In this document: positions 10,259-18,606 of the stretch, piece after piece
How positions within the stretch are numbered: position 1 is the first letter of the stretch
Layout of the letters: every line of letters begins with the position of its first letter
From: a phage
Sequence record: NC_104726.1
DNA: 64,000 nt
Direction: 5' to 3' (one strand)
Position numbers and translations under genes: made by a program
The notes under the pieces: model-generated
What the model was told of the DNA's origin: nothing
The model's database searches: none
Seen by the model: the letters and a program-made list of their open reading frames with translations, nothing else

Positions 10259-10537
10259 ATGAGCTGCGAAAAATCTTTTTTCATCATCATTTACGGTAAG
10301 GATAACTGCCCACATTGTGTCAGAGCAAAAGAATTTGCAATCAGCAAAGGTCTGCCTTTTGTATATAAGACACTTGGCGAGGGCTACACAAAAGAAGAGC
10401 TTATTGAGAAGTGTAGTCCAATCGTCCCCCGAACGTTGCCGCAGATCTTCTTAGAAAGCGATCTTGACAGTATCCATATAGGCGGTGCCGACGATTTCAT
10501 CTCTTTTGTTAAGAATGGTTTTGGAGAGAAAAAGTGA
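10259..10537 (+). CDS. glutaredoxin (NrdH/NrdC-like redoxin)
   Basis: CPHC active site in a 92 aa thioredoxin-fold ORF between nrdB and nrdD. Confidence 0.75.
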   Translation: MSCEKSFFIIIYGKDNCPHCVRAKEFAISKGLPFVYKTLGEGYTKEELIEKCSPIVPRTLPQIFLESDLDSIHIGGADDFISFVKNGFGEKK

Positions 10538-11394
10538 AAGTTGTAAAACGGGACGGTAGAGAAGAGTTCTATAACGGAATTAAGGTGATCAAGGCGGCAG
10601 AGTCCGCCTTACTTGAGTCTGGACATACTGAAGAAGAAGCTTACCGGATCGCTTGTGCGGTTAATGAAGTTGTTGCTAACAATCTGCCAACCGACCAGTG
10701 CACGATCTCTGTAAAAAATATCCATATCCTTGTTGAAGATGCTCTTATGGATATGGGTTTAAAATGTGCAGCCAGAGAATACATCCAGTATAGACAGACA
10801 AGAGATAATAACAGAGAGGCAGGTGGAAAACTGCTTGCAGATATTAGTGGCTTCTTGGATCGAACTTGTGATGAATTTACAAAAGAAAACGCAAATAAGC
10901 CTACTAATCATGTACACACTCATCGCGACCTGCTTGCAGGTATTCTTAGCAAACACCTTGCATCAACACAGATCCTGCCAGACCGTGTCTCCGAAGAGCA
11001 CAATAAAGGCTTCATCCATGTGCATGATCTTGACTACTTGATCAGTCCGTTAACAAACTGTTGCTTGGTAAATTATCCAGATATGTTGGAAAACGGATTC
11101 AACATTGGTAACGCCCATGTCAGTAAGCCGAAGTCAATAGGGGTTGCAACAACAATCCTTAGCCAAATCTCTAGTGCGGTAGCTAGTGCTCAATATGGTG
11201 GTCAGACTATGAGCCATATTGATCATTATCTGGCACAGTATGCTGAAGCGACCTATGAGAAGAACCTTAAATTTTGCCAGGAACATTGGTTGCCAGATGC
11301 TGAAACTGTTGCAATGCAAATGACAGATAAAGACGTGTTTGACAGCATGCAGACGTTGCTTTATCAGATCAACACACTAACCTCGGTAAACGGT
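10534..11394 (+). CDS. nrdD: anaerobic ribonucleotide reductase, exon 1
   Basis: GTG start overlapping upstream stop; N-terminal ATP-cone-like region; frame closes at a stop inside the intron. Confidence 0.85.
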
Positions 11395-11684
11395 TAACAA
11401 ACTGGCCGTTTTAAAACTCTGCTAACCTTAGTATGAGGGGTCAGCTGATCGCTGGCTAACGGGGAACGCTAAGGCGAAAGCTATGCCAATCCCGTGACTA
11501 GCTTCACAAGGAGTGAGGCGGTTGTAACGACTAACCTTTTGGTGTAGGGATTATGGAAGATTCCGAAACGCAGGGGTCTGATTAAGAATCACACGGTGTG
11601 ATTTCAGGCAAGAGATAGTCTGGCCTTGTGGAAACATAAGGGTGGGGACCGCAAACCCCTTTTATCACATTAAGTTTAGGACTG
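11395..11684 (+). other. group I self-splicing intron in nrdD (no ORF)
   Basis: 290 nt between nrdD halves; P-, Q-, R-, S-like elements (AACGGGGAACGC, CAATCCCGTG, GTAACGACTAA, AAGAGATAGTCT) in order; P1 pairing 11388-11394 with 11405-11411 (U-G at splice site); ends in G at 11684. Confidence 0.8.
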
Positions 11685-12914
11685 GATACCTCGGTCTTTG
11701 GTAGAATGATTACCAAAAATTACTTGAAAGTCCACAAAATGGGTCTTGGTGAAGAACGGATCACACCTGTGTTCCCTAAAGTGCTGTTCTTCCTAGAAGA
11801 GGGTGTCAACATGAACCCTGAGGATCCTAACTATGATTTGAAACGATTAGCTCTGGAATGCTGTGCAGAACGTATCTACCCTGACTTCGTATCTGTACCA
11901 CTAAATAGAAAAGTGACAGGCTCGACAGATGGCAAAGTAACGAGCATGGGTTGCCGGAGTTTTCTTAGCAAATACAGTGACTTGGAAACAGGCGAGGAGA
12001 AATATCTTGGCAGATTTAACTTAGGCGTTGTTAGCCTTAACCTACCAATGATTGCGGCAAAAGCTAAGACGGAAGGTGTTGATTTCTTTGCAGTTCTTGA
12101 CGAATACTTGGATCTTGCATACGAGGCTCACCTTGTAAGGGTTAACCGTCTAAAAGGAACAAAGGCAGGGCAGAACCCCATCATGTGGTGTGAAGGAGCT
12201 CTTGCTCGCCTGGATCCTGAAGAGAGTATTGATAAACTCTTCTATGACGGGTACGCTTCCATCAGCATTGGGTATATTGGTGTGTATGAAACCTGTCAGA
12301 TTTTGGGTAGAGAGGGTGACAAGGCTTTAGCTCTTGGAATCCTTCAGCACATGAGAGATGCTTGTGAGCGATACAAGAAGGAAAGTAGACTAGCGTTTAG
12401 CTTGTACGGCACTCCTTCTGAGAGTCTATGCTATAAAGCTGCAACCTGTCTGGATCGTGAATATCCGGAAGTGTTGAAGCACGAGCATGAATATCTCACC
12501 AACAGTTTCCATCAGCCAGTATGGATCAATAGCTCTCCTTTTGATAAGTGGGAGTATGAGGAAGGTTTTGCTATGATCTCCTCCGGTGGCAACATCGGAT
12601 ACGTAGAGACACCTAACCTGAAAAACAACCTTGATGCTTTAGAGGCTCTTGTTGACTTCGGGTATAAACACATTATGTATTTTGGTATTAACCAACCTGT
12701 GGATAAATGTCTCAAGTGTGGTTTCTCTGGTGAGTTCAGTGCAACAGCTAAAGGGTTCTGCTGCCCTGCGTGCGGATGCCACGATGAACAATATATCTCA
12801 GTGATCCGAAGAGTGTCTGGATACCTTTCCAGTCCTAACTCCCGTCCTTACAATAAAGGTAAGCAAGCGGAAGTTATCGAGCGAGTTAAGCACTACGGAA
12901 GTTGTGGTTGCTGA
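11685..12914 (+). CDS. nrdD: anaerobic ribonucleotide reductase, exon 2
   Basis: In-frame continuation DTSVFGRMITKN...; C-terminal zinc ribbon CLKCG...CPACGC and glycyl-radical motif RVSGY. Confidence 0.85.
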   Translation, partial: DTSVFGRMITKNYLKVHKMGLGEERITPVFPKVLFFLEEGVNMNPEDPNYDLKRLALECCAERIYPDFVSVPLNRKVTGSTDGKVTSMGCRSFLSKYSDLETGEEKYLGRFNLGVVSLNLPMIAAKAKTEGVDFFAVLDEYLDLAYEAHLVRVNRLKGTKAGQNPIMWCEGALARLDPEESIDKLFYDGYASISIGYIGVYETCQILGREGDKALALGILQHMRDACERYKKESRLAFSLYGTPSESLCYKAATCLDREYPEVLKHEHEYLTNSFHQPVWINSSPFDKWEYEEGFAMISSGGNIGYVETPNLKNNLDALEALVDFGYKHIMYFGINQPVDKCLKCGFSGEFSATAKGFCCPACGCHDEQYISVIRRVSGYLSSPNSRPYNKGKQAEVIERVKHYGSCGC

Positions 12915-12980
12915 TACTTGACAAAAGCCACAAGGATGTGGCACCCTTAGTTCAAAGACGAGAACTAAGAGGATTCAGCA

Positions 12981-14141
12981 GTGAGAAAACTTACAACCGA
13001 AGATTTTATAGAGGGGGCGAAAGCAGTTCATGGTGATAAATATGATTATTCCAAAGTCAAATATGTGGGTGCACACACCAAGGTTGTAATTATATGCCCT
13101 GAGCATGGAGAATTTAAGAAAACTCTTGGAGATCACCTCCGTAAAAAACAGGGTTGCCCAAAATGTCAGATTGAAGCAGAAAGAGCGGCTTCTGCTGAAA
13201 AATTTAAAGCGGAGGCCGAGGCTAAGTATAATTATAAATATGATTACTCTAAGGTAGAGTATGTAAATGCTAAAACTAAAGTTGTGATTGTTTGTCCTGT
13301 TCACGGCGAGTTTGAGCAAAAGCCTGATAACCATCTCCGCGAGGGGGGTTGCCGTAAGTGTGGAGGAACTGAGAGAAAGACTACTGAAGAGTGGATCGCT
13401 GAGGCAAAAGCGCTTCATGGCGATAAGTATGATTACTCTCTTGTAAATTATAAAACCGGTAATGATAAAGTGGAGATAATCTGTAATACATGTGGTGCTC
13501 ACTTCCCACAAAGACCTCATGACCATGCACCAAGTGGAAAAGGTTGCCCCGAGTGCGGGAAGAAGAAGGTGGCCGAGGTTAGTAGGAAGACGCAGAGAAA
13601 GAAAGCATCTGAGGTAGCTAAAAGGTTTGAGGCAAGAGCCAGAGCTATCCATAAAGATAAATACGATTATTCCGGGGTGGAATATGTTAATAGGGAGACA
13701 GAGGTCACTATCATCTGTCCGATTCACGGGGAGTTCACACAAAAACCGTTTGTCCACATCAACCAAAAAGCTGGCTGTCAAAAATGTGCTAAAGTCGGCT
13801 TCTTATCTCATGAACATGGTAGCCTTTATATCATGGTTGACGATCTGGAAGTACCAACTATGATGAAAATTGGTGTGAGTGTCCGGGTAGATGAACGAAG
13901 AAAAGATGTGTTAAAAAGAGCTAAAAAAGCTGGTGCTAGATTCTCTGATCTACATGTTATAAAAACTTGGGAAGGAACAACAGACGACATGCAAACTTTA
14001 GAAAAAGCTATGCACCAAGCCTTGAGCCAATACAAAATCAACTTCACAGAGAAGTTTGATGGCTGTCGAGAGTTCTTCTACTACAGACCGGAGGTATTCG
14101 AGCTAGTAGAAGAACATTTGAAGAAATTTGCTAATAAATAA
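12981..14141 (+). CDS. T5orf172-type (GIY-YIG-like) nuclease-domain protein with four tandem zinc-ribbon-like repeats; candidate free-standing homing endonuclease
   Basis: Four repeats of GDKYDYS-V-YV---TKV-I-CP-HGEF---P--H----GCPKC; C-terminal LYIMVDD...IKIGVS...EFFYY resembles the T5orf172 domain; GTG start after TAAGAGGA. Confidence 0.6.
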   Translation: MRKLTTEDFIEGAKAVHGDKYDYSKVKYVGAHTKVVIICPEHGEFKKTLGDHLRKKQGCPKCQIEAERAASAEKFKAEAEAKYNYKYDYSKVEYVNAKTKVVIVCPVHGEFEQKPDNHLREGGCRKCGGTERKTTEEWIAEAKALHGDKYDYSLVNYKTGNDKVEIICNTCGAHFPQRPHDHAPSGKGCPECGKKKVAEVSRKTQRKKASEVAKRFEARARAIHKDKYDYSGVEYVNRETEVTIICPIHGEFTQKPFVHINQKAGCQKCAKVGFLSHEHGSLYIMVDDLEVPTMMKIGVSVRVDERRKDVLKRAKKAGARFSDLHVIKTWEGTTDDMQTLEKAMHQALSQYKINFTEKFDGCREFFYYRPEVFELVEEHLKKFANK

Positions 14142-14202
14142 TAACACACAAAGGGCCAGCTTTATTCTAGCCCTTCAGTCCGTTGTAAATTAAGGAGTTG
14201 TT

Positions 14203-14328
14203 ATGTCATCTGGTGGCTTTAAAGTAAAAATTTGTAAACACTGCGGTTGTAAGTGCAATCTTCGTTGGTGCAAGGCACTGGACGATTTTATTTGGCATTG
14301 CCCTAAATGTGATGCGGAGTATCTATGA
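14203..14328 (+). CDS. small zinc-ribbon protein (41 aa)
   Basis: ATG after AAGGAG; CKHCGC...CPKCD; stop overlaps the nrdG ATG (ATGA). Confidence 0.35.
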   Translation: MSSGGFKVKICKHCGCKCNLRWCKALDDFIWHCPKCDAEYL

Positions 14329-14798
14329 ATATTGCCGGATACACAGAAATATCTTACACCGAAGGGCCAGGTATTAGAACTGCCTTATGGGTATCTGGGT
14401 GCCCACACGCTTGCCCTGGTTGCTTTAATCAGGCATTTTGGTCAAAAGATAAGGGGAGAGAGTTTACTGAAGAAGACTTGCAAAAAATCTTGTCAGATTT
14501 AGATAACCCGTCTGTGTGCGGTATCTCTCTGCTGGGTGGAGAACCCTTAGCATACTATAATGAGCCAGATATTATTAGCCTGATGGAGAAAATTAAGGAA
14601 AAATTTGGTGACAAGAAAACTATTCTTGTATATACTGGGTTCACATTTGACCATATCTCTAGTAATGTTCTTAAACTGGCTGATATCATCATTGACGGTA
14701 AGTATGTAAAAGATTTACCAACCAAGAAACCGTTCCGAGGTAGCGATAACCAAAGAATGTTTAAAAAAGTAGCAGGCGGTTGGGTCCAGGTAGACTAG
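14325..14798 (+). CDS. nrdG: anaerobic ribonucleotide reductase activating protein (radical SAM)
   Basis: CPHACPGC radical-SAM cysteine motif near N-terminus; 157 aa. Confidence 0.85.
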   Translation: MNIAGYTEISYTEGPGIRTALWVSGCPHACPGCFNQAFWSKDKGREFTEEDLQKILSDLDNPSVCGISLLGGEPLAYYNEPDIISLMEKIKEKFGDKKTILVYTGFTFDHISSNVLKLADIIIDGKYVKDLPTKKPFRGSDNQRMFKKVAGGWVQVD

Positions 14799-14802
14799 TT
14801 GT

Positions 14803-14831
14803 TGACAAAGCTTTGTTTAGATAGGTATAAT
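14803..14831 (+). promoter_or_regulatory. sigma70-like promoter (TTGACA-17-TATAAT)
   Basis: -35 at 14803-14808, -10 at 14826-14831. Confidence 0.6.
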
Positions 14832-14862
14832 TATCGTAAAATGAAAGCAGAGGAGGTGCCAA

Positions 14863-14976
14863 ATGGCTAAAAAAGCCTTGAAGAAGGCGTACAAGAAAGA
14901 GATTGCGCTTGAGCTTAAGAAAAAACACAAGCGTGAAAAGAAACATCATGAAGATGAAGAGGGGGTGCAACAGTGA
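14863..14976 (+). CDS. small lysine-rich protein (37 aa)
   Basis: ATG 6 nt after AGGAGG; stop overlaps the GTG of the next ORF (GTGA). Confidence 0.3.
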   Translation: MAKKALKKAYKKEIALELKKKHKREKKHHEDEEGVQQ

Positions 14977-15323
14977 CACAAGAACGTATCGATTTGGCTA
15001 ATAAGTTTGTAGATCTCATTTTGCCACGGTTAGTTACTCAACATGCAGATGCTATTTCTACTAATCTTGATGGCTTACGTCTAATGCTGAATCGCACAGA
15101 TGACCCTCGTATTCGGGCTGATTTAGAAGCCTCTGCCAACAAACTGGAAAAGTTCTTGCAAGTAGGTACGCAAGAAGCCTTACACAAGATTATGGTGGAA
15201 GGTTTCTCTAAAGAATTTACCATTAAAGAGCTTAAGGAGCTGATCCACCAAGAAGAGATGAATATCCGAGTTCAGGCTGTTGCAAGCAGCATGGAAGCGG
15301 CTATTGAAAAACTGTTGCAGTAA
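14973..15323 (+). CDS. hypothetical protein
   Basis: Track ORF, translationally coupled to the upstream small ORF. Confidence 0.4.
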   Translation: MTQERIDLANKFVDLILPRLVTQHADAISTNLDGLRLMLNRTDDPRIRADLEASANKLEKFLQVGTQEALHKIMVEGFSKEFTIKELKELIHQEEMNIRVQAVASSMEAAIEKLLQ

Positions 15324-15361
15324 AAGTTCCAGACACATCTCAATCTGAAAGGAGTCCCAAC

Positions 15362-16156
15362 ATGGGTCGAGCTAAAGAAACAAAACGCATGCGTGATGAA
15401 GCTAAAGAGGCTCGCAAATCTGATCGCCTGCGTAAAGCTGCTGAGAAATTTGCTGAAGAACGAGAGCACACAGCTCCAGCTCTCCGACCGATGAATAAAA
15501 AACAAGAGTATTATCTCCACCTTCTTAAAACTAAACAGTTAGTGATCGCAACAGGGCTGTTTGGCACAGGCAAGTCGTTTATGGCTGCAGCTTATGCTGC
15601 AGACCTGCTTCGTAAGAACGAGATTGATAGAATTATTGTTTGCCGCCCAAATGTTGAATGTGGAAGCCATGGCACGGGGTTCAAACCTGGAGGTGTATTA
15701 CAGAAAAACGAACCTTTCTTAAAATCAATTTTAGAAACTCTCAAAAAACGACTCGGACCTGGTGCTTATAGTACGTTATTGGGAGACGGTCAGACTGGGC
15801 GCATCGAGGTGCAAGAGGTTGCAACAATCCGAGGTCGAGATTTCTCTGATCGTTGCATCATCCTAGTTGATGAGTTTCAGTTGACAACCTGTGCAGAGGC
15901 TTTGGCAATTGCCACACGGCTTGGTGAGCATGCACAAATGATTTGCATGGGAGACTTACGACAGAACGATCTCAAAGGCACCTCAGGACTTCAGTGGCTG
16001 ATCGACTTTGTAACGAGGCACGAAATCAACGGTGTTGGTATCGTAGATTTTGACGAGCCAGAAGATGTGGTTCGCTCAGGTATTGGTAGACTGTTTGCAC
16101 TAGGCCTTATGACTGACCGTAATAAAGGTGTGTGGACCCCTGAGGCAGGTTTATAA
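15362..16156 (+). CDS. phoH: PhoH-family ATPase
   Basis: Walker A GLFGTGKSFMAAAYA and Walker B-like IILVDEFQ; GGAG RBS. Confidence 0.8.
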   Translation: MGRAKETKRMRDEAKEARKSDRLRKAAEKFAEEREHTAPALRPMNKKQEYYLHLLKTKQLVIATGLFGTGKSFMAAAYAADLLRKNEIDRIIVCRPNVECGSHGTGFKPGGVLQKNEPFLKSILETLKKRLGPGAYSTLLGDGQTGRIEVQEVATIRGRDFSDRCIILVDEFQLTTCAEALAIATRLGEHAQMICMGDLRQNDLKGTSGLQWLIDFVTRHEINGVGIVDFDEPEDVVRSGIGRLFALGLMTDRNKGVWTPEAGL

Positions 16157-16168
16157 TATATATAGGAG

Positions 16169-16192
16169 AGAGGGTGATATTATTCACCCTCT
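16169..16192 (+). terminator. terminator-like hairpin after phoH
   Basis: AGAGGGTGA-TATTAT-TCACCCTCT, perfect 9 bp stem, followed by ATTTAAG. Confidence 0.35.
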
Positions 16193-16199
16193 ATTTAAG

Positions 16200-17129
16200 A
16201 TGCGTTTAGGAGAACAGTTATCACGAGAAGAAGTGTTTATCAAGAAAGCTACTGATAAGCATGGTGACAAGTATGATTACTCCAAAGTTGTATACAAAAA
16301 CAACACAACACCTGTGAATATAGTGTGCAACAAGTGTGGTACAGTTTTTAGTAAAACTCCTAAGTCTCACCTTATAGGCGCAGGATGCCCAGATTGTAAG
16401 AACAGGGAGTTAAGTGAGAGATTCCGAATGTCTAAGGAGGAGTTTGTAAAAAGGGCAACAGAACTGCACAAGGGGAAGTATGACTACTCTCTTGTAAAAA
16501 GTTTTTCTAACAGGAACGACACTGTTACTATTATTTGCCCCATCCACGGAGAGTTCAAGCAGACAGTTGCAAATCATTTAGCTGGTGGGTGCTACAAGTG
16601 TGGAAAAAGAGCGACAGCTAAAAAGATGAGGAAGTCTAAAGATAGATTCATAGAGGATGCTACTCAACTACACGGAGACATATATGACTATTCAGAAGTG
16701 AAGTATGTGAATACCCACACTCCTGTAACCATTATCTGCAAGTCTTGCGGGTGTAAGTTTCTTCAACAGCCTGCAAACCACCTGTGCGGTAACGGTTGCC
16801 CAGAATGCTCTACTTCAGGATTCAGGCAGAGTACTAAAGAGAGCTGTCTGTACCTTCTTGTTGATGATCTTACCATTCCCACGGTTATAAAAGTTGGGGT
16901 GACTATCAATCTACAGAGCAGACTATACAACATAAGAAGGAACACAAATTTTCCTGTTCACGTGCTTAAAGTATTTACTTTCGAGCAGGGGTGTGCTACC
17001 ATGCAGATTGAAAAATTGGTGCATAAAGTCTTTGCAGATCGCAACTGCCACTTCGAAGGTTTCGACGGGGCAACGGAGTGGTTCTGGTACTCTCATGATA
17101 TTGTAGAGTTTCTAGAAGACAATTGTTGA
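16200..17129 (+). CDS. T5orf172-type nuclease-domain protein with three tandem zinc-ribbon-like repeats (paralog of 12981..14141)
   Basis: Three GDKYDYS...CP-HGEF...GCP-C repeats plus C-terminal LYLLVDD...IKVGVT...EWFWY; ATG at 16200 in frame with track ORF 16128..17129. Confidence 0.55.
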   Translation: MRLGEQLSREEVFIKKATDKHGDKYDYSKVVYKNNTTPVNIVCNKCGTVFSKTPKSHLIGAGCPDCKNRELSERFRMSKEEFVKRATELHKGKYDYSLVKSFSNRNDTVTIICPIHGEFKQTVANHLAGGCYKCGKRATAKKMRKSKDRFIEDATQLHGDIYDYSEVKYVNTHTPVTIICKSCGCKFLQQPANHLCGNGCPECSTSGFRQSTKESCLYLLVDDLTIPTVIKVGVTINLQSRLYNIRRNTNFPVHVLKVFTFEQGCATMQIEKLVHKVFADRNCHFEGFDGATEWFWYSHDIVEFLEDNC

Positions 17130-17154
17130 CAAACAGATAAGCTTTAGGTATTAT
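17126..17154 (+). promoter_or_regulatory. sigma70-like promoter (TTGACA-17-TATTAT)
   Basis: -35 at 17126-17131, -10 at 17149-17154. Confidence 0.55.
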
Positions 17155-17184
17155 TATCGGACAAAACAAGGAGAAGGAGATAGT

Positions 17185-17496
17185 ATGGCTACAATACAAG
17201 AGAGACTGAATAAAATATACTGCCTGTTTGTCTATAACGGCGAGACAATTTTGGCAAATAAAGGATCCAAGAATGTGTGGATCAAGGACAGTGGTGGTAA
17301 TATAATCAACTTAGCGTTGCTACGTGAGCGCCGACACAGATTCTTTATCGAGTCTCGGATTATTGAAAGCAGCACCTGCTACAGAACAGGCGATAAAGTA
17401 ATTGTTGACAATGATACGTGGTATGTGGTAGACTGGCAATCATTGAGCTGTGATGCTTCTGACAATCGTAAGTATTCCCTAGTGATTGCTAAATAA
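17185..17496 (+). CDS. hypothetical protein
   Basis: ATG after AAGGAGAAGGAGA. Confidence 0.45.
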   Translation: MATIQERLNKIYCLFVYNGETILANKGSKNVWIKDSGGNIINLALLRERRHRFFIESRIIESSTCYRTGDKVIVDNDTWYVVDWQSLSCDASDNRKYSLVIAK

Positions 17497-17556
17497 AGGT
17501 AAATGTGAATCAGTTTTAAATAAATAGCTTTCAACTTCCAATATTAAGGATTTCTC

Positions 17557-18606
17557 ATGAATTTAACACCTCGCAGCACCATGGTACACGGCATGAAAGA
17601 AAAACAGAACGGTTTCGAACCTATGAGTAATAAAATGTTTGGTATGCCGGGTGGTATTATGGAAACATACAGCTACCCAACACCTGTTGTTGACCACGTT
17701 CTTTATATCGACGATTTGGAAGACTTACAAGATCATATGTCTCGTCTGCAGACGATCCGTATGGCTCAGCCAGAAGAAAGTATCCGTGTAATCATTAACA
17801 GTCCTGGTGGTTGCGTTCACATTGCTATGGCGTATTTGCAGGCATTCCGCGAGTCTCAGGCAAGCGTTGTTGCACATGCTGAAGGGATGTGCTGCTCTGC
17901 TGGAACAATCTTATGGCTTGGTTGTAAAGAACGTACTGTGGCTCCGGACACAGAGTTTATGTTCCACTACTATCAAGGTGGCACTTATGGTAACGGTGTG
18001 AACATGAATACTCAGGTCAGCTACTGGAAAAAACGTTTTGAACGCCTGATCGAAAAATACTACGGTGGGGTGCTGACAGAAGATGAGATCGCATCCATCA
18101 CAGCTGGTGGCGAAGTGTGGTTGGACGGAGAAGAGCTGGCAGCACGCACTGGAGCTATTATTCTGGATGAAGGCAACATACAACGCATCCAGAACGGACA
18201 AAAACCGAAAAAGCTTCTGGCAAAAGGTGATGAAGAAGGCGTGTTAGGTGAAGCAGGTCTTCCGGAGATTCACCAGTGCACATCTTTAGATGAGTTAGTT
18301 CATGCTGTTGAATCTGCAAAAGCGGGTGGTTCGAAAGGTGATGTTCACACTGTGTTCCTGAATCTGCAGATGGAGAGTGGCGAGACCGTCAGAATTGCCC
18401 TGGGTGAGATTACTTCAGAAGATCTGCAGAGATTCTCTGTCGTTGAACTTCAGGATATTCTGTCTCAATTGAAGACTACTCTGAACGGCGGTGAAGAGGT
18501 TAAGGTGAAAGATAAGACTCGCAAGCGTCTGGTGGACAATATTATTAAAACAGCAAAAGAGCTCAATGAAAAAATCCTGGGTGCAGGAATTGTCGAAGAA
18601 GCTTAA
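17557..18606 (+). CDS. ClpP-like (S14 family) serine protease-domain protein with C-terminal extension
   Basis: IINSPGG, GMCCSAG (Ser) and FHYYQGG (His) resemble ClpP motifs; AAGGA RBS. Confidence 0.55.
   Translation: MNLTPRSTMVHGMKEKQNGFEPMSNKMFGMPGGIMETYSYPTPVVDHVLYIDDLEDLQDHMSRLQTIRMAQPEESIRVIINSPGGCVHIAMAYLQAFRESQASVVAHAEGMCCSAGTILWLGCKERTVAPDTEFMFHYYQGGTYGNGVNMNTQVSYWKKRFERLIEKYYGGVLTEDEIASITAGGEVWLDGEELAARTGAIILDEGNIQRIQNGQKPKKLLAKGDEEGVLGEAGLPEIHQCTSLDELVHAVESAKAGGSKGDVHTVFLNLQMESGETVRIALGEITSEDLQRFSVVELQDILSQLKTTLNGGEEVKVKDKTRKRLVDNIIKTAKELNEKILGAGIVEEA

Follow-up and report, generated by a model that had tools for sequence, protein, structure and literature searches.

Two T5orf172 genes with zinc-finger arrays beside nrdG and phoH of an rV5-like phage, most probably free-standing homing endonuclease genes

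Two genes joining finger arrays to a T5orf172 domain

The 64,000-nucleotide stretch of phage sequence record NC_104726.1 analysed here (hereafter the window) comes from an rV5-like myophage of Escherichia coli, genus Vequintavirus, and carries two open reading frames (ORFs) encoding tandem zinc-finger repeats followed by a C-terminal T5orf172 domain. They lie in a region with the gene order nrdA, nrdB, glutaredoxin, nrdD, the first ORF (12981-14141), a small ORF, nrdG, two small genes, phoH, and the second ORF (16200-17129), after which come one gene and a ClpP-like protease. We refer to the two genes as HEG1 and HEG2, respectively, and to their products as P1 and P2, and we consider it highly probable that both are free-standing homing endonuclease genes (HEGs) belonging to the T5orf172 branch of the GIY-YIG superfamily. 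An earlier note, made from the sequence alone, had described both ORFs; their coordinates, their lengths and their positions, one between nrdD and the small ORF preceding nrdG and the other directly after phoH, were all confirmed. A profile search of all six frames of the window detected no T5orf172 member beyond these two ORFs. The features of the genes and of their products are as follows:

12981..14141, plus strand: HEG1, 386 amino acids (aa), four zinc-finger repeats and a C-terminal T5orf172 domain (ORF list, Pfam, PHROG 681)
12999..13793, plus strand: zinc-finger array of HEG1 (DUF723/DUF4379 above gathering score)
12999-13172, 13197-13370, 13386-13559 and 13620-13793, plus strand: the finger cores of HEG1, about 58 aa, each with C-x2-(H/C)...C-x2-C
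13815..14138, plus strand: T5orf172 (GIY-YIG-fold) domain of HEG1, with conserved Y283, K296, G298, R306, E341, H345, G361, E364 and F366
16169..16192, plus strand: hairpin with a 9-bp stem between the phoH stop and the HEG2 ATG (RNA fold z = -2.2)
16200..17129, plus strand: HEG2, 309 aa, three zinc-finger repeats and a T5orf172 domain (ORF list, Pfam, PHROG 681)
16230-16403, 16437-16610 and 16641-16814, plus strand: finger cores of HEG2 (repeat motif, Pfam)
16842-17126, plus strand: T5orf172 domain of HEG2, with conserved Y218, K231, G233, R241, E271, G290, E293 and F295

HEG1 starts with a GTG codon and has a ribosome-binding site (AGAGGA) upstream. The HEG2 start codon, the ATG at 16200, is nested in a longer GTG ORF that begins at 16128, and it agrees with the GenBank orthologues of phages navn and phiWec191 (930-bp coding sequences) as well as with the N-termini of homologues; no Shine-Dalgarno sequence is visible ahead of this ATG on inspecting the sequence. 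Both proteins fall in PHROGs family 681, 'endonuclease' (P1, E=5e-81; P2, E=1e-66), and align with each other at 37% identity (BLASTP, E=6e-55). NCBIfam holds no family for P1, for P2 or for the 41-aa product of the small ORF.

The repeats are centred on a KYDYS motif, four in P1 and three in P2, in agreement with the 3-4 tandem modules of the earlier note; the 55 aa given there for the module corresponds to the conserved core, the period being 63-78 aa (189-234 nt), or about 65 aa. Pairwise identity among the repeats is 42-58%, and the four metal ligands, C-x2-(H/C)...C-x2-C, are kept in all seven. The arrays score above threshold with the Pfam families DUF723 (P1 54.1 bits, E=1.4e-14; P2 26.4 bits; gathering score 20.9) and DUF4379, described as a 'probable treble clef zinc finger' (P1 46.3 bits, P2 39.8 bits; gathering score 24.5), and below the cut-off of 24.2 with the Pfam CapR homology domain (PF21817; P1 15.9 bits, P2 10.8 bits). 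Judged by these profiles, the repeats are related to CapR, yet not classed as CapR. CapR itself, a PLE satellite protein that represses transcription of the capsid operon of phage ICP1, carries a related zinc-finger module in which the four Cys are required for sequence-specific binding of DNA at a defined site (PMC8096241). Because these related fingers bind specifically, those of P1 and P2, which match the Pfam CapR model only below threshold, would be expected to bind DNA as well.

The full-length AF2 model of P2 has a pLDDT of 82.8 and a pTM of 0.38, with single repeats reaching pLDDT values of ~85-92. Since the domains are confident and the pTM is low, P2 is predicted to consist of independently folded beads on flexible linkers. 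In the modelled bead, a helix and a short pair of strands are followed by a beta hairpin, which bears the first two ligands, and by a second ligand pair running into a helix. Because the domains are flexibly linked, a Foldseek search of the PDB with the full-length P2 model yielded nothing significant, its sole neighbours of any meaning being a DUF4379 protein and Slx1; for the bead, the one meaningful PDB neighbour is 6sga_Fd, a DUF4379 protein from the mitoribosome assemblosome of trypanosomes (prob 0.82).

The C-terminal domain of both proteins exceeds the Pfam cut-offs of T5orf172 (PF10544; P1 27.1 bits, P2 37.7 bits; cut-off 20) and of its sister model MUG113 (P1 30.7 bits, P2 33.4 bits; cut-off 22.3), and the nuclease homology proposed in the earlier note is therefore real. 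In P1, a confident model of this domain shows the GIY-YIG fold, with its beta-beta-alpha-beta-alpha core. An alignment of the last finger and C-terminal domain of P1 with 21 homologues (22 sequences) has K296, G298, R306, E341, G361, E364 and F366 as invariant columns, V299, H345 and F359 being nearly so, and the equivalent residues, including R241, E271 and E293, are also invariant in the P2-based alignment. Sequence and profile searches of solved structures returned nothing significant for either domain type. Aligned by hhalign with the I-TevI catalytic domain (I-TevI sequence compared with 1mk0/1ln0), P1 gave a non-significant E of 0.12, with Y283, G298 and R306 in the expected register, opposite I-TevI Y6, G19 and the catalytic R27.

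By analogy with Odn, the ICP1 T5orf172 protein in which the E180A change abolishes cleavage in vitro (PMC8263062) and the one family member with demonstrated cutting in the literature consulted, P1 and P2 would cleave DNA; the position of their Glu residues suggests which of them corresponds to I-TevI E75 and Odn E180. It is very unlikely that T5orf172 is a DNA-binding module only and that P1 and P2 are multi-finger DNA-binding proteins devoid of nuclease activity. Such a role would suit the name 'T5 Orf172 DNA-binding domain' used by UniProt in database annotation and the prediction, made by association, that the domain binds DNA (Netter et al., PMC8096241), but the GIY-YIG fold and the conserved Arg and Glu speak for a nuclease, as does the Glu-dependent cutting of DNA by Odn in vitro.

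Short proteins (~105-200 aa) with one finger or none (P0121-P0135) have nuclease domains 57-74% identical to that of P1; their named sources are the lambdoid phage mEp013 (gp12) and a chromosome of E. coli. This similarity suggests that temperate siphophages and virulent rV5-like myophages have exchanged the domain. P2, for its part, is 45% identical overall to the metagenomic protein P0067, to which its nuclease region is by eye much nearer than to P1. HEG1 and HEG2 thus look like independent acquisitions and not like the outcome of a duplication inside this genome; a recent duplication of that kind was rejected given the low identity between P1 and P2 and the clearly closer relationship of the P1 nuclease to proteins found elsewhere. 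The word 'paralogous', used for the two proteins in the earlier note, is thus only loosely right.

Sporadic presence, empty sites and diverged flanks

Over the stretch 10500-17600, 124 phage records match the window at 92-99% identity, the maximum coverage by any one of them being 81%, and these are the related records considered here. HEG1 is present in a single one, E. coli O157 typing phage 14, where it is intact and 99.6% identical to the copy in the window, compared with 94.9% and 97.7% for the two flanks. HEG2 is present in six (navn, phiWec191, YP-6, a 1.9-kb fragment, and 'Campylobacter phage' C2 and C5) and is missing after phoH in JeffSchatz and other relatives. No single record has the set of elements that the window combines. 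This strong presence/absence polymorphism supports the homing-endonuclease reading already put forward in the earlier note, and comparison with gene-free relatives, also suggested there, defines both insertion sites:

12927-12942, plus strand: hairpin GCCACAAGGATGTGGC, directly after which the HEG1 insertion begins
12944..14226, plus strand: the whole HEG1 segment, comprising gene, leader, trailer and recoded start of the small ORF (blastn against JeffSchatz, phiWec191 and EmilHeitz)
14203..14328, plus strand: small ORF for a 41-aa four-Cys zinc ribbon, MSSGGFKVKICKHCGCKCNLRWCKALDDFIWHCPKCDAEYL, whose stop overlaps the nrdG start (sequence comparison)
15502..16156, plus strand: diverged part of phoH, from codon ~47 to the stop, with ~55% nucleotide identity to the resident allele
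17116..17154, plus strand: right boundary of the HEG2 cassette; from 17116, 14 nt ahead of the HEG2 stop codon, the sequence is again homologous to gene-free phages

HEG1 sits at a hairpin/promoter-like region, and its segment stands in place of 52 bp of the gene-free site. From the nrdD stop to the conserved part of the small ORF, the distance is 138 bp in JeffSchatz, phiWec191 and EmilHeitz and 1372 bp in the window and in typing phage 14. The small zinc-ribbon ORF was present in every relative inspected (38 aa in JeffSchatz); its 41-aa product in the window has no family match and is perhaps accessory to the anaerobic reductase. In HEG1 carriers, its first ~18 codons are recoded and it is three codons longer than in gene-free phages, and the segment 14142-14268 was found only in the window and in the other HEG1-carrying record. 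The HEG1 target likely lies within the ~72 bp that differ between occupied and empty sites, namely the intergenic sequence and the 5' end of the small ORF, and the recoded 5' end is likely the immune allele.

At the second site, the nucleotide identity of phoH to the relatives drops at ~15502 from 94-98% to ~55% and stays at that level through to the stop codon, unlike the remainder of the genome, which is 95-98% identical to relatives. The phoH segment 15707-16156 was found only in the six HEG2-carrying records. Because of this switch and of the restriction of the allele to HEG2 carriers, the alignments place HEG2 at the right end of a 1.6-kb cassette (15502-17115) that has replaced most of phoH. 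The closest PhoH not linked to HEG2 among 50,697 phage records has only 52% amino-acid identity, so that the donor of the foreign phoH appears to be an unsampled phage. On the right side, the HEG2 stop overlaps the -35 box of the promoter-like TTGACA-17-TATTAT site of the next gene. The likely target of HEG2 is on the left side of the gene, within phoH or its terminator.

The GenBank records of the MG0656xx series labelled 'Campylobacter phage' (for example MG065655, C2; MG065659, C5; A135 and A147), with Campylobacter jejuni given as host, share 98-99% identity with rV5-like phages of E. coli across the region compared here, and their host label looks doubtful.

In some two dozen relatives, the slot between nrdD and nrdG is taken by a different T5orf172 allele. 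The allele of navn and inoa encodes 310 aa with two DUF723 fingers and one shorter finger; that of ECML-10 (OL631479; L007 1536-2663), a gene missing from the GenBank annotation, encodes 375 aa with one DUF723 and four shorter fingers; and WalterGehring and nom have a further type, annotated as 'putative homing endonuclease' in WalterGehring. At least four arrays with closely related T5orf172 domains, the window type with its four DUF723 fingers and at least three others, therefore occupy this slot. In PMBT16 (PP554575; L008 1818-2845), a T5orf172 gene of the navn type is frameshifted into ORFs of 68 and 285 aa, which marks it, from its sequence, as a decaying copy. The navn type shows divergence upstream, at the 3' end of nrdD, and keeps the small ORF in its empty-site form, whereas divergence is downstream in the window type; this difference suggests that the two types have different targets within ~150 bp.

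A five-finger T5orf172 protein (P0019) occurs outside this group, in unrelated metagenomic phage contigs of ~146 kb (Logan; L009, L010 and L011, large phage contigs of 42-148 kb), with terminase genes (L010, L011) or a DNA ligase gene (L009) within its 5-kb flanks. A second DUF723-T5orf172 gene (455-459 aa) lies ~1.6 kb downstream of the P0019 gene in two of these contigs and is absent in the third.

In the window, nrdD is interrupted by an ORF-less group I intron of 257 nt (11395-11651). It matches the Rfam family Intron_gpI over the full length (29.8 bits, E=1.4e-4; the gathering score, 50, is not reached); a U precedes it, its final base is G, and its excision gives an nrdD of 708 codons (stop included), identical to that of JeffSchatz at 705 positions. 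The intron, which is not linked to HEG1, is common to 13 relatives, and ~29 more share only its first 142 nt (86% identity); in EmilHeitz, the one inspected among the latter, the interruption at this site has an ORF annotated 'putative homing endonuclease'. navn and phiWec191 contain an extra nrdD insertion of ~770 bp that is absent from the window (window 11951-11961; L001 1953-2722, L002 1696-2465); it holds a 510-bp ORF, annotated 'endonuclease' in phiWec191 and 'hypothetical protein' in navn, and is probably a second intron. With the intron site of the window and this insertion, nrdD has at least two invasion sites in Vequintavirus. Collaborative homing of HEG1 with the intron at 11395-11651 was considered and rejected on two lines: in at least 10 of the 13 intron records, the nrdD-nrdG gap is free of HEGs or occupied by a different T5orf172 allele, and typing phage 14 has HEG1 together with an uninterrupted nrdD.

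Proposed homing and the alternative readings

Architecture, fold, motif conservation, sporadic presence, exact junctions and linked diverged flanks are established here, and sporadic presence, intact empty sites and linkage to flanks are the signatures of free-standing homing endonuclease genes. The overall mode would be intron-less homing. In a mixed infection with a gene-free relative, the protein would bind a long asymmetric site of the gene-free allele through its three or four independent fingers, and the C-terminal GIY-YIG-type domain would cut near the bound site. Repair of the break from the HEG-carrying genome would copy the HEG in together with flanking donor sequence, and the carrier genome would be immune because the flank holding the target has been recoded or replaced.

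Several points weigh against this reading. The window is 99-100% identical to navn and phiWec191 across 14227-18000, well past the HEG2 cassette, and this near-identity beyond the cassette provides no independent support for a recent transfer of HEG2 by the cassette alone. HEG2 has no visible ribosome-binding site and a hairpin lies 5' of its ATG, so its expression may be low or conditional; this arrangement recalls the translational restraint of the T4-type free-standing endonuclease genes. Cleavage, target sites and homing are properties that we infer for P1 and P2, and the homing of the T5orf172 HEGs of ICP1 is itself experimentally unverified (Barth et al. 2023, PMC10448857).

The two genes could alternatively descend from HEGs and be domesticated now, benefiting the phage as sequence-specific nucleases directed against a competing element, as Odn is against PLE, or as DNA-binding regulators in the manner of CapR or of I-TevI, which represses its own gene. 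Both fates are documented in the T5orf172/CapR family (PMC8263062, PMC8096241, PMC10448857), and the location of the HEG2 stop on the -35 box of the next gene and of HEG1 at a hairpin/promoter-like region means that binding near their own loci could affect transcription. We nevertheless regard domestication as unlikely. Odn-type nucleases have a RepA_N domain, which is absent from P1 and P2 (Pfam, E up to 1); CapR has no nuclease role, whereas P1 and P2 keep every conserved motif residue; and if the genes were useful, more than one or six of 124 close relatives should carry them. PADLOC did report a weak match of both proteins to the candidate defence family PDC-S57 (E 7e-4 and 9e-5), but the matches span only the shared nuclease domain, and a defence or anti-satellite role was rejected given these weak, nuclease-only matches and the absence of RepA_N. 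The link to recoded flanks, moreover, is predicted by homing and not by defence.

A different possibility is that both genes are intact-looking relics, brought in by ordinary mosaic recombination with a divergent phage, which cut nothing now or never had a target in Vequintavirus. The HEG life cycle does include decay, as the frameshifted allele of PMBT16 illustrates, phoH and HEG2 could have entered together from a phage not yet sampled, given that no PhoH outside the linked records exceeds 52% identity to this one, and the want of a visible HEG2 ribosome-binding site would fit as well. However, the ORFs of P1 and P2 are full length with all invariant residues present, copies across phages are 98.3-99.9% identical, and between two backbones HEG1 has diverged less than the sequence on either side of it. 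The exchange boundaries, in addition, fall exactly at the end of the HEG, a pattern that has been ascribed to HEG-driven exchange (PMC10448857). Taken with these observations, the relic explanation seems to us quite improbable, and we retain free-standing homing endonuclease genes as the reading of both loci.

Known systems and significance

P1 and P2 are further members of an already described family, and their homing-type layout is not new. CapR/DUF723/DUF4379-type fingers occur in 200 of 229 T5orf172 HEGs, often repeated, as 'beads on a string', with recombination of the arrays and with the HEGs located at boundaries of genetic exchange (Barth et al. 2023, PMC10448857). A fold search of BFVD likewise found 170 viral proteins with a matching predicted structure, among them a Hef-like homing endonuclease, a CapR homology domain protein, a GIY-YIG nuclease and the navn orthologue of P2. 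The earlier note had regarded a C-terminal nuclease with a repeated N-terminal array as a non-standard layout for a homing endonuclease. It does differ from that of I-TevI and the Seg proteins; among T5orf172 HEGs, as the above proportion and the BFVD matches indicate, it is the usual one.

The similarities to the T5orf172 HEGs of ICP1 and other phages (PMC10448857; PHROG 681) include the N-terminal array of CapR/DUF723/DUF4379-type fingers followed by a C-terminal T5orf172 domain, the free-standing, variably present genes located by conserved genes and at a boundary of diverged sequence, and the variation of repeat number among alleles. The differences concern the host lineage (rV5-like Vequintavirus), the sites (between nrdD and nrdG, and 3' of phoH), the fingers, which score as DUF723/DUF4379 and not as CapR proper, and the nearly whole foreign phoH that accompanies HEG2. 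Odn (ICP1 gp88, the origin-directed nuclease) also has a T5orf172 nuclease domain, with a conserved Arg and Glu to which those of P1 and P2 may correspond, but it joins this to a satellite-derived RepA_N DNA-binding domain and serves as an anti-satellite weapon, in contrast with the finger arrays and the homing-type genomic signatures of P1 and P2. In I-TevI and SegA-G of T4, the nuclease is N-terminal and accompanied by NUMOD/helix-turn-helix elements and a single structural zinc finger, whereas in P1 and P2 the nuclease is C-terminal and preceded by 3-4 tandem treble-clef-type fingers, with no match to NUMOD or helix-turn-helix domains; the YIG motif of the former is replaced by K-[IV]-G. 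Among the structural neighbours of the model that spans fingers and nuclease is a protein of phage mar003J3 annotated 'Hef-like homing endonuclease' (E 2.6e-9). Hef-like endonucleases are free-standing enzymes of T4-related and ViI-like phages; Hef of phage U5, also in the ribonucleotide reductase cluster, is reported to cut nrdB (Sandegren et al. 2005, as cited in PMC2988022 and PMC3296691), and homology of P1 and P2 to Hef, suggested by the label of this one neighbour, is a lead.

The repeat module is very abundant and matched no fewer than 7,788 clusters. The top metagenomic hits of the array (P0002-P0120) are mostly proteins of 450-540 aa with no detectable T5orf172 domain, many of them with longer arrays; P0091 ends in a DUF559 (Vsr-like) domain and so does P0119, according to a precomputed Pfam list. 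Since DUF559 occurs in array proteins, the finger array seems to have been combined with more than one type of nuclease.

In the HEG-linked swap described here, most of a conserved gene, phoH, has been replaced by a copy only about half identical in protein. phoH and nrd genes serve as phylogenetic markers for phages, and such a replacement matters to those who use them. The two loci also offer a clean test bed, as gene-free and carrier isolates exist (the BASEL phage JeffSchatz on one side; navn and phiWec191 on the other) and the sites are defined to the base. Given that homing in ICP1 is unverified (Barth et al. 2023), they provide a practical system for a first direct test of homing in the T5orf172 family, and the array variants that share one slot make the target specificity of multi-finger arrays testable. 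More speculatively, the DUF723/DUF4379 repeats could form a modular DNA-recognition system in which each ~65-aa finger reads a few base pairs and changes in the identity or number of fingers retarget the nuclease, an idea that we put forward as a rather long shot. If it were true, a readable finger-to-sequence code could lead to a new class of compact programmable nucleases, and the nrdD-nrdG slot of Vequintavirus would be a natural experiment on arrays fused to related nucleases.

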